From NCBI GenBank assembly GCA_944364615.1, contig CALVWF010000001.1:65840-129839 (forward strand): 64,000 nt of DNA, written 5' to 3'. This DNA is from an uncultured Clostridia bacterium (GTDB lineage: Bacteria; Bacillota; Clostridia; Christensenellales; CAG-314). The position numbers were made by a program, and so were the translations under genes. Under the pieces are notes generated by a model. It saw only the letters and a list, made by a program, of their open reading frames with translations, had not been told where the DNA came from and ran no database searches. Of this stretch, positions 57,343 to 61,953 are shown one piece after another (position 1 is the stretch's first letter; every line of letters starts with the position of its first letter).

Positions 57343-58296
57343 CTATTCGACGGTAATATAGCGACCTCTTCCCTTGATTTTGTCTGCCGAGTACTTGCAA
57401 CCGCATTTGTCTCCGAAGTAAAGCAACTTTAACGAGTCCGCAAAAGGCTTTCTGAACACCACTGCATTGCCTTTTTTACCCAGTTCCAGAAGCAGAGTGA
57501 ATATTTCGGAGTCAGCAGGATGCCAGTGCGTGGAGTAACTTTTGCCGCCTATACATGCGAAGAATTCAAGAACACATTCCGAATCGACATATACGTATAA
57601 TGTAAAACCGTCAAAATTCCAGACAAGCGTGTCGCCGTCGACGCTGTACTTTCCACCGAGGTCGGGAACGCTTTCCAACATTTCGTACAACTGCCGTGCG
57701 TTACGTGGTACAAAAGGCTCAACGCATTGGTAACGTGGATCGAATGCATGCAGGTAACCTGCCGTAAGTACTATCGATTCGGGCAAAACCCGCCCGACGG
57801 TAAACGTTTCGTCAAACAACGAGCAATCGAGCAGAACCTTGACGGTAAAATCAGCCGTCAGACCGCCGTCGAGTAAAGCGATTCTGAACTGTAACCATTG
57901 ATCGAACTCCATAGATGAATCCTTTTCGTCGTATTTTCCCCGCCTTACAATCATGCACTTACCATTTTCGCCAAAGGACAAAAAGTCAAAATCGGGAAAA
58001 ATGTATAAATCGCCTCCGTACAAAAAATAACTGCGACTTGTATTCCTGTGAAAAACGCATTGTACGGAAAGATCGCGCTGTCTGACGCCTTTATAAAACA
58101 TGTATTGCGGCGAATAAGTTACGTTACTTTTATACGGTATGTGAAATTGTTTGTAATAATCGCTTCTCCTATATTGTACCGCCTCGGCAAGGGACGCAAA
58201 AGGGAAAATAAACGCAATGAAAACAAATGCAACAACTATTATCGGAAAACACACAATAAACATCAACACATACAGTAAGACTTTATACCATTTCAT
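57343..58296 (-). CDS. Hypothetical membrane-anchored protein
   Basis: ORF 57343-58350 trimmed to MKWYKVLLYVLMFIVCFPIIVVAFVFIAFIF (ATG 58296 behind AAAGGAAG). One N-terminal TM region then about 270 aa with no motif I recognise. Confidence 0.55.
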   Translation of the reverse strand: MKWYKVLLYVLMFIVCFPIIVVAFVFIAFIFPFASLAEAVQYRRSDYYKQFHIPYKSNVTYSPQYMFYKGVRQRDLSVQCVFHRNTSRSYFLYGGDLYIFPDFDFLSFGENGKCMIVRRGKYDEKDSSMEFDQWLQFRIALLDGGLTADFTVKVLLDCSLFDETFTVGRVLPESIVLTAGYLHAFDPRYQCVEPFVPRNARQLYEMLESVPDLGGKYSVDGDTLVWNFDGFTLYVYVDSECVLEFFACIGGKSYSTHWHPADSEIFTLLLELGKKGNAVVFRKPFADSLKLLYFGDKCGCKYSADKIKGRGRYITVE

Positions 58297-58944
58297 ATTC
58301 TCGCACTTCCTTTCATTAATTAAAACACAAAAAAAATTATTTTGCAACATTATGTCAATGAGATGTTGCTTTGCCCCTTTCAGCGTTTGAAAAAGCGTGA
58401 CGGTATCGACAGATTGTAATGAAAAAGCGACAATGCTTCAAGCGTCAGAAGTGTACGGAAACAGTCTGTTGCAGGTTTTAAGTCGACGATAAATCTTCTT
58501 CCTATTACTGCGGTAACGCACGACTTTTTTTAAAACGTTTTCCGGCACATTGGTGCACGACGACACTTCAAACGTTACGCAACCGACAACACACAACCCC
58601 GAAACAAAAACGGAAAGCCAAAAGATTTAAAACCGACAAACCGTATTTTAATTCAAAAAATACGTTGAAACGTATGGTAAAAGCATACGACAGTAAACGG
58701 GCTCGGTAAGGTCAGATTCTTTCGGTAAATAATTATTGTGCAAATGAAATACGAAAAACATTCAAACGCAAAAACCGCAAAAGTGTGCCTCGACTGACCG
58801 CCTGTGCACTGCATAAACACACCAATACCTGACTTACAACCGATGTGCAGGATACAGCAATACCGCTCTCAGTAAGAGCGGTACGCATTGAATACCGTTA
58901 AATGCAGAACAAAGGCTGTTTGCAACCACAAAACGATTCAATAG

Positions 58945-58973
58945 AAAAAGGGCGCATTGTGTGCGCCCTTTTT
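58945..58973. terminator. Bidirectional terminator at the left edge of the AT-rich island
   Basis: aaaaaGGGCGCA-ttgtg-TGCGCCCttttt. About 90 nt downstream of the NTase-like gene on the minus strand. Confidence 0.85.
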
Positions 58974-59006
58974 AATCGATTTGTTTTTGTGCTATCGCTT
59001 TAATAC

Positions 59007-59066
59007 AAAATGACACCCCTACTTGCAAAACGACACCCTTACTAGATAAACGAAACCCCTAAATTA
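59007..59066. repeat. Left-end array: three tandem 20-bp repeats
   Basis: aaaatgacacccctacttgc / aaaacgacacccttactaga / taaacgaaacccctaaatta (16/20 and 13/20 identities between neighbours). The last unit overlaps the stop codon of the NTase-like gene. Confidence 0.8.
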
Positions 59067-59726
59067 AGACTTTTTTCTATGATTGTATCGATCATAAACT
59101 TCGTTAACTGCTTCGATATAACAAATAAACGATGGATGATTATAATCATTTCTTGTTAAATACATATTTTTCTTATTTAAGTACCCTTCTCTTACTTCAT
59201 TCCAATAGTTATGGTTTTTAAGCCAATCAACTTTTTTATTTAAATTATATGAATTACGTCCTTCATTCCAAATCCAGACATCATTGCGTGTATTACCAGT
59301 TTTCTGATGAATTAGTCTCCACCATGAGCCATTTGAATCTTCAACAACGATTCCTAAGTCAATGCTAAATCTTGTCTTATTTCCACTTGTAAAATTTCGA
59401 TTTTCAGTAGTTAAAGCAGACGTAGAATCTTGGCAATCACCCCATCCATTTCTGTTTAAGATTACATTAAACTTTTTCCTTATATATTCTTTGATTCCTT
59501 GACAATCATTAATATTCCAAGAACGAATAATAGAAATATTGTAATCTAAATCAACTGGTTCAAATTCGTTTTGAGTTTCTAAATTTCTAGAACCACTGCC
59601 AACACTATGTGCCACAACTATCATCTTGCCTTCGTTATTAATTTCTTGAACCAACTGATTAACTAAATTAGAGCAAACTGATCTTAACTTCTTTAGAAAT
59701 TCTTTATCTTCTATATAATGATACAT
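59064..59726 (-). CDS. Pol-beta-superfamily nucleotidyltransferase-like protein (220 aa)
   Basis: GGAGG RBS. hGS at G43-S44 (HSVGSGSR), DxD at D59/D61 (PVDLDYNI) and a third acidic strand FSIDLGIVVED (D123), in the spacing of minimal NTase folds. W/N/Y-rich helical C-terminal half. Family not identified. Confidence 0.55.
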   Translation of the reverse strand: MYHYIEDKEFLKKLRSVCSNLVNQLVQEINNEGKMIVVAHSVGSGSRNLETQNEFEPVDLDYNISIIRSWNINDCQGIKEYIRKKFNVILNRNGWGDCQDSTSALTTENRNFTSGNKTRFSIDLGIVVEDSNGSWWRLIHQKTGNTRNDVWIWNEGRNSYNLNKKVDWLKNHNYWNEVREGYLNKKNMYLTRNDYNHPSFICYIEAVNEVYDRYNHRKKS

Positions 59727-59801
59727 ACTTAAAAACCTCCTAAATAAATATTATCCCCATGCCTACCATTTGAAGTATGTATCTTTTCTTCAAATCCTAT
59801 T

Positions 59802-59830
59802 ATTATACATTTCAATTACCAATTTGTCGA
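59802..59830 (-). promoter_or_regulatory. Sigma-A promoter of the NTase-like gene
   Basis: Minus strand TCGACA (59830-59825), 17-nt spacer, TATAAT (59807-59802). Confidence 0.6.
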
Positions 59831-60029: not shown

Positions 60030-60500
60030 CTATCTATAAAGTACAACAATTTTAGGATCTGACAAATCTTGTTCTCTAACAAAGCATTCTGCGTAATCTC
60101 CAACTTGATATGAAGTAAAATATTTTGAGAATATTCTATATACAAATCTAATTCTAACTTTTTTATTTAAATTATCTGTTTCGATTTTTCCATACATTAC
60201 ACTACCTATGGATCTTTCTAGGATTTTAACATGAATCAATTTTCCTTTTGAATTAATAAATGGCAAAAATCTATATAGATATATAATCAAAGAAGCAATA
60301 AAACAAATAGCAAACAATACATCTATCAATATTAGAACACTAAATATTTCATTAACTGCTTCTTGATTAGCATTTGTGGAATCAAAAGACTTTAAATAAA
60401 ATATCAAGCATAAAAAGCAAATAAATGTTATTAGTTGAATTGCTAAGGAAATAATCATCCAATAAAAACCGTACATTCTTTTAATATTGAATTTTTCCAT
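60030..60500 (-). CDS. Two-TM protein with small beta-rich C-terminal domain
   Basis: 156-aa ORF. TM1 about residues 10-36 and TM2 about 52-79, then about 75 aa of alternating beta-like sequence ending YQVGDYAECFVREQDLSDPKIVVLY. GGAG RBS inside the upstream gene's end. Confidence 0.6.
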   Translation of the reverse strand: MEKFNIKRMYGFYWMIISLAIQLITFICFLCLIFYLKSFDSTNANQEAVNEIFSVLILIDVLFAICFIASLIIYLYRFLPFINSKGKLIHVKILERSIGSVMYGKIETDNLNKKVRIRFVYRIFSKYFTSYQVGDYAECFVREQDLSDPKIVVLYR

Positions 60501-60502
60501 AT

Positions 60503-61039
60503 TTAAACTCCATATTTATAATTTATGTTTCCAACAACCATACTACCACGGTTATTCGTGTTGTTAACATAGTTTGTTCTTATAATGAATCTTATCTTTG
60601 TAGCGCCAGATTCGAATACATCTACATAATTTGTTAGGTTATCTTTATTAGTTGACATCTCTTTTGGATTAAAAATTCTTTTGGTTTTCCAACCATTATT
60701 ATAATATTCTAAAGTAATTGAACTTTTTTTAATAAGTGATTCATCATCACTCCAAAGGGCAATATTGTAATTGAATTCAAAAATACTAACATTTTCATCA
60801 ATCAAGTTTTCTTCTTCAATTTCAACTTCTTCTTTTTCCTGTGGAATATAATTATCAATATAAGACATACTTGATAAATTTTCCACATCATTACCTTTTG
60901 TAAGTTTTAATAGCTTTTTATCAACAACAACTTCCTGGGAATTATAAAACCCCTTATTAAAAGTCGATAATGTGCTAGAGGATACAATTCCCATTCCTAA
61001 AATCATTAAAAGAACCAATTTTTTTAAATGTTTTTTCAT
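60503..61039 (-). CDS. Secreted or membrane-anchored protein with acidic linker and beta-rich C-terminal domain
   Basis: 178-aa ORF. Signal/anchor MKKHLKKLVLLMILGMGIVSSS, acidic stretch QEKEEVEIEEENLIDEN, then Asn/Tyr-rich domain. Stop lies 2 nt before the next start. Confidence 0.55.
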   Translation of the reverse strand: MKKHLKKLVLLMILGMGIVSSSTLSTFNKGFYNSQEVVVDKKLLKLTKGNDVENLSSMSYIDNYIPQEKEEVEIEEENLIDENVSIFEFNYNIALWSDDESLIKKSSITLEYYNNGWKTKRIFNPKEMSTNKDNLTNYVDVFESGATKIRFIIRTNYVNNTNNRGSMVVGNINYKYGV

Positions 61040-61159: not shown

Positions 61160-61339
61160 TCACAAAAAATTAGAAATTATAAGCATTGGATACTCTTGCT
61201 CCAATAATGACTTAACACCGTACTGATTGTCAGAAACTTCCTTATCGTGAATTTGTGCCTCCTCCCCGAAAATGCCAATTACTCCGTGGGAATGTTTATG
61301 CTGTTCAGTTAATCTCTTCGATTGATTCTTTTTTGCCAT
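61160..61339 (-). CDS. Small hypothetical protein (59 aa)
   Basis: Track ORF 61160-61357 trimmed to MAKKNQSKRL (ATG 61339, GAGGTG 6 nt upstream). The longer form starts at an ATG overlapping the HTH stop by 1 nt. No family recognised. Confidence 0.4.
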   Translation of the reverse strand: MAKKNQSKRLTEQHKHSHGVIGIFGEEAQIHDKEVSDNQYGVKSLLEQEYPMLIISNFL

Positions 61340-61356
61340 TCTCTTCACCTCATTCA

Positions 61357-61551
61357 TTAATTATCTAGTTTCATGCCAATCTCGTTAAAGAGAACGACAA
61401 ATTTCTTCTTGGTATCCATAGTTGGTTCAAATCTACCTGTTTCCCATCTACAAACGGAAACATAACTAACATTTAATATTTTAGCTAGTTCTTCCTGTGT
61501 TAAGCATTTTCTTTCACGGTATTCTTTTATTTTCTTTGCATAATCAAACAT
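61357..61551 (-). CDS. XRE family HTH protein (Cro/CI-like, 64 aa)
   Basis: LTQEELAKILNVSYVSVCRWETGRFEP HTH_3 pattern. GAGGTG RBS. Confidence 0.8.
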   Translation of the reverse strand: MFDYAKKIKEYRERKCLTQEELAKILNVSYVSVCRWETGRFEPTMDTKKKFVVLFNEIGMKLDN

Positions 61552-61650: not shown

Positions 61651-61749
61651 TTGAAAATGGGGTGTCATTTATATAGTAGGGTATCGTTTATCTAGTAGAC
61701 TAACGTTTCTCTAGTAAGGGTATCGTTTATCTAGTAGGACTAAAATCTT
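61651..61749. repeat. Right-end array: five tandem 19-21-bp repeats, inverted relative to the left array
   Basis: ttgaaaatggggtgtcattta / tatagtagggtatcgttta / tctagtagactaacgtttc / tctagtaagggtatcgttta / tctagtaggactaaaatctt. Unit 4 (61710-61729) matches the reverse complement of left unit 2 at 18/20. Confidence 0.8.
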
Positions 61750-61835
61750 AAATTCCGTAGGTTCGAACCAATTCATATCTACTAGCAAAACGCAATTTAT
61801 AAAAAAATGCCCGATTTCTCGGACAAATATCGTTA

Positions 61836-61855
61836 ATTTTGACACCCTTACTTTG
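61836..61855. repeat. Solitary repeat copy in left-array orientation, 23 nt from the tRNA 3' end
   Basis: attttGACACCCTTACTttg. The 12-mer GACACCCTTACT (61841-61852) is identical and co-oriented with 59032-59043. Confidence 0.75.
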
Positions 61856-61877
61856 TATCAAAATGTTAGTTATAAGA

Positions 61878-61953
61878 TGGTGCTGGCGAGAGGATTCGAA
61901 CCTCCGGCCTATTGATTACGAATCAATTGCTCTACCGACTGAGCCACGCCAGC
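61878..61953 (-). tRNA. tRNA-Thr (anticodon CGU), CCA encoded
   Basis: Manual fold of GCTGGCGTGGCTCAGTCGGTAGAGCAATTGATTCGTAATCAATAGGCCGGAGGTTCGAATCCTCTCGCCAGCACCA. 7-bp acceptor, U8, D arm GCTC/GAGC, anticodon stem ATTGA/TCAAT with loop TTCGTAA, T arm GGAGG-TTCGAAT-CCTCT (one G-U), discriminator A. Confidence 0.9.

Follow-up and report, generated by a model that had tools for sequence, protein, structure and literature searches.

A candidate miniature cGAS/DncV-like nucleotidyltransferase carried as a single-gene unit on mobile elements of gut bacteria

A small AT-rich island lies next to a tRNA-Thr gene in a 64,000-nucleotide stretch of DNA from an uncultured Clostridia bacterium (assembly GCA_944364615.1, contig CALVWF010000001.1, positions 65,840 to 129,839), which as a whole is called the window here. 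The last gene of this island, in the minus-strand reading, is the subject of this analysis. An earlier note, made from the sequence of the window, had proposed that this gene encodes an unusually small protein of 220 aa that resembles a nucleotidyltransferase (NTase), and an open reading frame (ORF) is indeed present at this place (Table 1). Between it and the tRNA gene are encoded a 156-aa protein with two predicted transmembrane (2TM) helices, a 178-aa protein, a fragment of a restriction enzyme, and a helix-turn-helix (HTH) protein. With moderate confidence, we propose that the NTase is a catalytically competent, autonomous miniature cGAS/DncV-like enzyme that has a role in conflict with phages or other mobile elements, and that it is uncoupled from the membrane proteins encoded beside it.

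The protein carries the ordered signature that the earlier note had read in it, with a GS motif at residues 43-44, a DxD motif at residues 59 and 61, and a third acidic residue at D123. In an alignment of 326 family members, which share 21-98% identity with the query, G43 is conserved in 98%, S44 in 96%, D59 in 97%, D61 in 99%, and D123 in 98%, and all five residues occur together in 311 of the sequences. Because they are retained across so wide a range of identity, these motifs are not a chance resemblance. They fall on predicted strands (residues 42-44, 59-62, and 122-124), as is characteristic of the Pol-beta superfamily. Additional residues conserved throughout the family are K79, D100-S101-T102-S103, W153, W175, Y182, K186, and S199-F200. 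Residue E205, a candidate catalytic base, is Gln in 26% of members.

An AlphaFold2 model built on a 40-sequence alignment has a predicted local distance difference test score (pLDDT) of 91.7 and a predicted template-modeling score (pTM) of 0.86. The protein is thus predicted with high confidence to adopt a two-lobed fold like that of the cGAS/DncV-like nucleotidyltransferases (CD-NTases), in which a long helix at the N terminus is followed by a core of five strands and a short C-lobe of three helices. The model begins with a helix at residues 8-32, a strand at 36-41 that is followed by the GS motif, and a strand at 58-68 that starts with the DxD motif. A helix at 75-92, the strand at 120-129 that holds D123, and strands at 135-141 and 150-155 come next, and the chain ends with helices at 162-171, 175-191, and 199-219. 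The C-terminal half had been described as helical, which is true of residues 162-219 but overlooks the two strands that come before them.

Searching the PDB with Foldseek, a check that the earlier note had itself suggested, returned the cGAS/DncV-like branch. Matches 1-37 are all CD-NTases, cGAS, or DncV, and the names among them are DwCdnB, ClCdnE, CdnD, BfCdnB, EmCdnE, CdnG, CdnC, cGAS, and DncV. The best match is DwCdnB (E 2e-6), and the top matches have a probability of 1.00, at most 228 aligned columns, and query-normalized template-modeling (TM) scores of 0.45-0.55. DNA polymerase beta first appears at rank 38, and the 50 top-ranked PDB matches include no chain of ANT, Lnu, KNTase, MNT, or MenT. 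The predicted model therefore has the two lobes of a CD-NTase, with the C-lobe much reduced. The protein also deserves to be called small: family members of ~215-220 aa compare with 272-342 aa for the bacterial CD-NTases matched by Foldseek, and the NTase is 50-60 residues shorter than the smallest CD-NTase, cGAS, or DncV match.

Relatives of the NTase form 1091 clusters at E<=1e-3 in a search space of 5.8 billion clustered proteins. The best 120 relatives listed are nearly all ~215-230 aa long and 59-98% identical to the query, and at 50% identity the family has 599 cluster representatives. It was found in 209 of 185,579 species genomes, with hosts that include Clostridia (Oscillospiraceae, Lachnospiraceae, Acutalibacteraceae), Acholeplasmatales, “Mollicutes,” Metamycoplasma faucium, and one Melainabacteria genome bin. 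A distant subfamily of ~205 aa, 26% identical and with GS, DxD, and D retained, is present in a temperate gut phage.

Despite this size, the family is without annotation. Neither the query nor diverse relatives matched Pfam, NCBIfam, PADLOC, PHROGs, or PDB sequences. In particular, Pfam gave no match to SMODS (PF18144) or Mab-21 for the query and 69 diverse members, and no PDB chain was found by phmmer or by the family profile (profile E<=10). The few source names shown for homologs are “hypothetical protein” throughout, no name stands on any of the family cluster members examined, and literature searches returned no described minimal or orphan CD-NTase relevant to this family.

Some rare members are longer than the rest. 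P0208 carries a C-terminal PIN7 nuclease domain and adjoins genes for a PIF1 helicase and a primase-helicase, which make up a replication module. Other C-terminal additions are a ~140-aa extension in P0222, a HeH/SAP-like motif in P0170 and P0198, and a basic tail rich in Lys, Ala, and Pro in P0209. The PIN7 fusion and the HeH-like and Lys-rich tails fit a role in nucleic-acid transactions or conflict. Two family copies are present in one genome bin, that of Clostridium sp. CAG:307_30_263 (L012 on MNRZ01000052 and L021 on MNRZ01000006), which fits carriage by more than one mobile element.

The NTase gene had also been credited with its own promoter and a GGAGG ribosome-binding site. Both sequences are present, although for the promoter this amounts to a consensus match. 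This AT-rich DNA shows no enrichment of promoter-like sites, with 23 found against 19.1 expected in shuffled AT-rich sequence, and the NTase promoter is therefore plausible but unproven. The site suggests that the gene is transcribed on its own.

Table 1. Positions of the features discussed, in the window unless a related locus (L number) is named
Feature	Position	Strand	Remarks
NTase gene	59064..59726	minus	220-aa ORF, ATG start; miniature CD-NTase-like nucleotidyltransferase (predicted)
V42-G43-S44 motif	59595-59600 (GS codons)	minus	Predicted catalytic
D59-L-D61 motif	59544-59552 (codons)	minus	Predicted catalytic
D123	59358-59360 (codon)	minus	Predicted catalytic
Ribosome-binding site AGGAGG	59736..59741	minus	9 nt 5' of the NTase ATG; from sequence
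Sigma-70-like promoter TCGACA-17-TATAAT	59802..59830	minus	11/12 consensus matches
156-aa 2TM protein	60030..60500	minus	Predicted long helices at residues 10-38 and 46-82; C-terminal OB/IF1-like barrel
178-aa protein	60503..61039	minus	N-terminal signal-like hydrophobic segment
65-aa N-terminal fragment, EcoRI-like restriction enzyme	61160-61357	minus	EcoRI 1.1e-6; REase_II 1.4e-13
HTH_3 controller-like gene	61357-61551	minus	HTH_3 1.4e-8
Cassette-start region	61659..61877	minus	Next to tRNA; TCTTATAACTAACATTTTGATAC... abuts tRNA 3' end
Four contiguous inverted copies of a 20-nt unit	61659-61737		Within cassette-start region
tRNA-Thr (CGT)	61878..61953	minus	Insertion point of AT-rich island
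Cassette-end element	58982..59063	minus	Directly after NTase stop; three ~20-nt units, GGGGTTTCGTTTATCTAGTAA / GGGTGTCGTTTTGCAAGTAG / GGGGTGTCATT, then conserved 27-mer TTGTATTAAAGCGATAGCACAAAAACA
G+C-rich hairpin with T-run	58948..58975	minus	Downstream of NTase and cassette end
335-aa protein	57343-58350		N-terminal membrane segment; just outside island
Cassette-end/start elements elsewhere	L003 6745-7057, 8664-8706; L005 1116-1183, 2676-2753, 4308-4385; L107-L133		
Tandem 136-bp units	L122 10174-10472		Three units; cassette end + start only
NTase in conjugation operon	L083 4509-11625		Bariatricus massiliensis
NTase in phage NatCom_17901	L106 4312-5581		PV036423.1
NTase-PIN7 fusion P0208	L145 482-1537		

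The question of a partner gene was addressed with 84 NTase loci, 81 of them nonredundant, by clustering the ORFs within four positions on each side. Neighbors were identified by crude gene calling, and the 138 nearest ones were scanned with Pfam and PADLOC. Across the 81 nonredundant loci no conserved partner gene was found, with neighbor clusters common only to close lineages, and a targeted check for recurring upstream proteins of ~200-220 aa gave nothing conserved beyond close lineages. In 13 of the 64 loci that have a neighbor on each side, both of these genes run opposite to the NTase. A gene of 100 aa or more on the NTase strand lies within 60 bp in only 16 of 81 loci, and the genes concerned are of differing kinds. 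The NTase is an autonomous single-gene unit that is often monocistronic and has its own promoter-like site and ribosome-binding site.

The earlier note was right that likely membrane proteins are encoded beside the NTase, as the 156-aa protein has two predicted helices and the 178-aa protein a signal-like segment; neither has a family match. Its further suggestion that the NTase works for or with these proteins did not hold up. A gap of 2 nt separates the stop codon of the 178-aa gene from the downstream 2TM gene, which makes the former the likely true partner of the latter, and a spacer of ~300 bp that contains a promoter-like site separates the 2TM gene from the NTase gene.

The 2TM family is small (27 clusters). 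In L099-L104 the 2TM gene occurs without any NTase and always directly follows the gene for a 142-aa or a 719-724-aa protein. An HTH gene and a tiny ORF (42 aa) are located just upstream in L099-L101 and L103-L105, and the contig of L102 ends inside the 724-aa gene. The order in the window (HTH, EcoRI fragment, 178-aa gene, 2TM gene) parallels that of L099-L105. The 2TM gene belongs to a separate module, composed of an HTH gene, a small ORF, a gene for a 142-, 178-, or 719-aa protein, and the 2TM gene, that mostly lacks an NTase. L105 is the only 2TM locus with an NTase (48% identical), whose gene follows 1.3 kb downstream, with two other ORFs in between. Functional coupling of the NTase to the adjacent membrane proteins is thus not supported.

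The model of the 2TM protein (pLDDT 78) comprises two long helices and a small barrel, which weakly matches IF1 and other oligonucleotide/oligosaccharide-binding (OB) folds (best E 3.5e-3). PADLOC and Pfam effector models gave no match for it. Its candidacy as an effector like Cap15 was rejected, given that no Cap15 or other effector of CBASS (antiphage signaling based on cyclic oligonucleotides) is among the top 50 fold matches and the comparative context speaks against it. Just outside the island, a gene of the chromosomal flank that is conserved in L142-L144 encodes a 335-aa protein with a membrane segment at its N terminus; this protein matched a PADLOC “2TM effector” model weakly in one scan (E 0.017) and not at E<=1e-3.

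Among the 138 nearest neighbors of NTase genes, the commonest Pfam families are SpoVAD (reflecting the synteny of one lineage), DUF4143/AAA_14, large serine recombinases, TerL and portal proteins, PrgI, TraG, Fic, and DNA methylases. Roughly 19-21 of the 138 have PADLOC matches, an approximate count with no measured background. The models represented are PDC-S01, the mad3/mad8/AriA ABC-ATPases, PDC-S04, AbiEi (next to the NTase in 2 of 138 cases), type II methyltransferases, SoFic, a retron reverse transcriptase, and others. Copies that are 96-98% identical to the NTase (L003, L005) have DruE and a NERD helicase encoded upstream and PDC-S04 in the next cassette, and TIR, HipA, and DUF4143 proteins are encoded near a homolog in L138.

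In four loci (L080-L083, of which L083 is from B. massiliensis) a gene for a 50% identical NTase is part of a conjugation operon. Genes for a TrbL/VirB6-like protein and then PrgI come ahead of it, and a gene for a VirB4/TraG-like ATPase follows it, with those for a sortase and a CHAP hydrolase after that. The family is also found on 14 IMG/VR viral contigs and in 2 of 50,697 GenBank phage records, and no copy was found among 72,556 plasmids. In phage NatCom_17901, the NTase gene is located between a serine integrase gene and genes for an anaerobic ribonucleotide reductase and a thymidylate kinase; a weak Abi_2 match (E 1.3e-3) was obtained for the gene that precedes the NTase. The family is cargo of integrative elements, prophages, conjugative elements, and defense islands in gut and rumen Firmicutes and Mollicutes.

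The island in the window has a G+C content of 24-31%, compared with ~45% in its flanks. At its head, the HTH_3 gene and the EcoRI-like fragment, with no methylase, are a remnant of a restriction-modification module; the same arrangement is present in L142 and L143, from other samples of the same species. The hairpin beyond the NTase gene is, from a comparison of the junctions, probably the original terminator of tRNA-Thr. Because ~2.9 kb of island separates the tRNA gene from this terminator-like hairpin, the island appears to have been inserted between the two.

The cassette-end element that directly follows the NTase gene recurs elsewhere. An element of ~85 nt, made of two or three 20-nt units and the 27-mer TTGTATTAAAGCGATAGCACAAAGACA, is present in L003 and L005, where it also trails other cargo genes, and searching with the 27-mer found the end element in 27 further contigs. 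Very often the 27-mer is directly followed by TCTTATAACTAACATTTTGATAC..., the sequence that follows the CCA end of tRNA-Thr in the window, which argues that cassettes stack head to tail with the first one abutting the tRNA. NTase homologs of just 50-52% identity directly abut the end element in L122 and L132. The tandem units in L122 have the look of cassettes without cargo, or of a recombination site that is repeated.

Known cargo of the cassettes includes the NTase, PDC-S04, and the 2TM module. In L132 the gene upstream of the NTase codes for a C-terminal portion of a large serine recombinase, in L003 an end element is preceded by an ORF that has a recombinase zinc ribbon, and large serine recombinases were the only recombinase genes seen near the repeat elements. 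Judged from these junctions, the island looks like a tandem accretion of small integrative cassettes, comparable to the staphylococcal cassette chromosome elements, which large serine recombinases mobilize. The repeat arrays were also considered as Tn7-like, but this reading was set aside: site-specific tandem accretion fits the junctions better, and the recombinase genes seen near the repeats are all of the large serine type. The tandem-cassette structure supports the view of the NTase as a self-contained cargo unit.

A mechanism can be sketched from these features. The enzyme would bind one or two (d)NTPs together with Mg2+ or Mn2+ through S44, D59, D61, and D123. In the C-lobe, K186 and S199-F200 may help to hold the nucleotide, as a candidate equivalent of the donor pocket that Lys ... 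Ser-aromatic residues form in OAS and cGAS. A nucleotidyl group would then be passed to a sugar hydroxyl of a second nucleotide or to the (3') end of a nucleic acid, forming a phosphodiester and yielding a short nucleotide product. The enzyme may act alone in conflicts among host, phage, and mobile elements, with a product that works in trans or is itself an antiviral agent, rather than one that signals to an adjacent effector.

Several points weigh against a lone cGAS/DncV-like conflict enzyme. Because the family lacks the adjacent effector usual for CD-NTases, which in the known cases nearly always adjoin an effector gene, a signaling role would be one without a known receiver. Kinship with CD-NTases is a matter of predicted fold only, at a TM score of ~0.5 and a sequence identity of 10-16%, and the clustering of the carboxylates of D59, D61, and D123 is read from the predicted topology rather than from inspected coordinates. 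The family profile gave no alignment by hhalign (probability 0.4%) to a DncV sequence checked against the PDB, but a single-sequence target is weak and this null result does not argue against the fold match. The enrichment of defense genes among neighbors is approximate, has no measured background, and amounts to guilt by association, and some family copies lie among housekeeping genes. The positions within conjugation operons and apparently between terminase and portal genes suit an anti-defense factor equally.

A lone CD-NTase-like enzyme is without known precedent. It is not implausible, because small NTases make defense signals, inhibitory ones included, as in Clover (PMC12265719) and Hailong (reviewed in PMC13276650), and because a CBASS effector works without its cyclase (10.1101/2025.06.19.660554).

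The same facts must be weighed under other explanations. A pairing along the lines of the earlier note, a minimal CBASS-like system with the NTase as signal generator and the 156-aa 2TM and 178-aa proteins as effectors, is now largely refuted and very improbable. The window, L003, and L005 do have in common a 1.5-kb segment, at 96-98% identity, on which the 156-aa gene and the NTase gene travel as a pair, the 2TM gene of L105 (57% identical) has an NTase gene downstream, and a 2TM region joined to a small beta-barrel is superficially like Cap15-type effectors. Yet ~95% of NTase loci have no 2TM neighbor, most 2TM loci (L099-L104) lack an NTase while the 2TM gene stays tightly coupled to its own upstream gene, the spacer with its separate promoter-like site intervenes, and neither the effector models nor the fold matches of the barrel point to an effector. 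An unlikely but more serious contender is a counter-defense factor of mobile elements, whose nucleotide product would silence or mimic a host immune signal or which would nucleotidylate an immune component. There is an established paradigm of small NTases that make inhibitory signals (PMC12265719; PMC13276650), and the signals of Hailong, Clover, and Panoptes provide a model. Such a role would suit an NTase gene placed between PrgI and the VirB4-like ATPase in the operon of a conjugative type IV secretion system (L080-L083), next to TerL and portal genes (a locus assignment inferred from sizes), between the integrase and the replication and nucleotide-metabolism genes of NatCom_17901, or, as the PIN7 fusion, beside PIF1 helicase and primase-helicase genes. 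The rarity of the family in GenBank phage records and IMG/VR, and the many copies in chromosomal defense islands, the typical place of defense genes, speak against this role, and no known anti-defense protein has this fold.

Two further explanations, each of which we consider improbable, assign the enzyme a different substrate. An NTase of the ANT, Lnu, or KNTase kind would adenylylate a hydroxyl of an antibiotic or toxic metabolite. The single-gene unit with its own promoter, the horizontal spread among gut and rumen Firmicutes via integrative and conjugative elements, the length of ~215 aa (within the ANT/Lnu range), and the modeled NTase core with a short helical C-domain are all what such an enzyme might display. 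Against it stand the lack of a Pfam match or of one in NCBIfam (which includes the resistance-gene models of NCBI), the absence of ANT, Lnu, and KNTase chains from the first 50 structural matches, a family divergence (21-98% identity) too deep for recent spread, the frequent Gln at the candidate base E205, and the poor fit of the PIN7 fusion and the nucleic-acid-binding-like tails; a plasmid-borne resistance gene in particular was rejected for want of any match among the plasmids searched. Those tails and the fused PIN RNase, present in some members, would fit an NTase that modifies a macromolecule, either by tailing RNA, tRNA, or DNA 3' ends in the manner of MenT/AbiEii or by (oligo)AMPylating a protein in the manner of MNT. 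In fused MNT-HEPN proteins, oligoAMPylation serves to regulate an RNase (PMC13000451), a possible analogy for NTase-PIN7, and AbiEi is an occasional neighbor. The NTase gene, however, adjoins no conserved antitoxin or target gene, has no sequence match to MNT, DUF1814/AbiEii, or HEPN partners, and has no MenT or MNT structure among its first 50 fold matches, and a lone gene for a tailing toxin that nothing regulates would be difficult to maintain.

A bolder reading can also be considered, although we regard it as doubtful. The ~215-aa protein may be the smallest cGAS-like enzyme known and, with its single gene, a complete immune or counter-immune module, which senses infection and makes a nucleotide product alone. 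Its product would strike a receptor encoded elsewhere in the genome or by the invader, or would itself be an antiviral or anti-immune agent, much as the nucleotide products of viperins act as antiviral agents themselves. If true, this would constitute a new branch of nucleotide-based immunity in gut Firmicutes and Mollicutes that is shuffled as cassettes at a tRNA-Thr hotspot.

From bacteria to humans, nucleotide-based immunity is built around enzymes of the cGAS/DncV-like class, and all bacterial examples characterized so far work with an effector encoded beside them. A large, conserved family without annotation that combines an intact active site with a stripped-down C-lobe and no partner gene is therefore distinct, and raises the question of what a lone CD-NTase-like enzyme makes and who reads its product. 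Because the family is common in bacteria of the human and animal gut and on mobile elements, it may affect phage-host dynamics or gene transfer. The cassette structure around the NTase may also serve as a marker for further defense cargo.

Comparison with known systems places the NTase closest to the CD-NTases. The antibiotic NTases ANT(2''), ANT(4')/KNTase, and Lnu/Lin, of ~160-290 aa, are likewise stand-alone enzymes with an NTase core and a helical C-domain that are spread by mobile elements. The NTase differs from them in having no sequence or top-50 structural match, no membership in a curated resistance family (no NCBIfam match), no plasmid copies, and a deep, old divergence. The MNT/HepT antitoxins and the AbiEii/MenT toxins are also small Pol-beta NTases with GS and DxD motifs that occur in conflict systems and on mobile elements. 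They need an adjacent HEPN or AbiEi protein, whereas the NTase family has no conserved one, and MNTs lack the C-terminal helical lobe that the NTase possesses. Assignment to MNT/HEPN or AbiEi/AbiEii finds no Pfam or PADLOC match for the NTase, and AbiEi is encoded by just 2 of its 138 neighbors.

Hailong HalB and Clover CloB are Pol-beta NTases with a [D/E]h[D/E]...h[D/E]h motif that function in phage defense (PMC12265719; PMC13276650). The DxD motif of CloB was mutated at D61/D63 or D71/D73 (PMC12265719), and thus lies near residue 60-70 in both CloB and the NTase. Each of the two invariably shares an operon with its effector, which is the ion channel HalA for HalB and the HD-domain dGTPase CloA for CloB (PMC13276650; PMC12265719). 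HD-domain and HalA-like proteins are absent from the most frequent families of the 138 nearest neighbors, and the names of the first 50 PDB fold matches include no HalB structure. Membership in Clover or Hailong was rejected on a genomic context unlike either; the separation follows published system definitions, not a sequence comparison.

The CD-NTases (CdnB, CdnE, CdnC, CdnD, CdnG, DncV; SMODS PF18144), together with cGAS and OAS, are the best and most consistent fold match. They share with the NTase the ordered GS ... DxD ... D motifs, the long N-terminal helix, the core, and the helical C-lobe, and like the NTase family they reside in defense islands and mobile elements. The gaps S44-D59 and D61-D123 are 15 and 62 residues in the NTase and 17 and 60 in the PDB-checked sequence of DncV. 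The NTase is 50-120 residues shorter, has only three helices in its C-lobe, and shows no detectable sequence similarity. In contrast to CBASS, no adjacent effector, Cap2/Cap3, or HORMA/TRIP13 genes are present in the 81 loci. The assignment to the CD-NTases thus holds for fold and motifs and does not extend to sequence homology or to the operon rule. With the predicted fold and active site kept, the C-lobe reduced, and the partner dispensed with, the NTase would define the minimal catalytic unit of the CD-NTase class.

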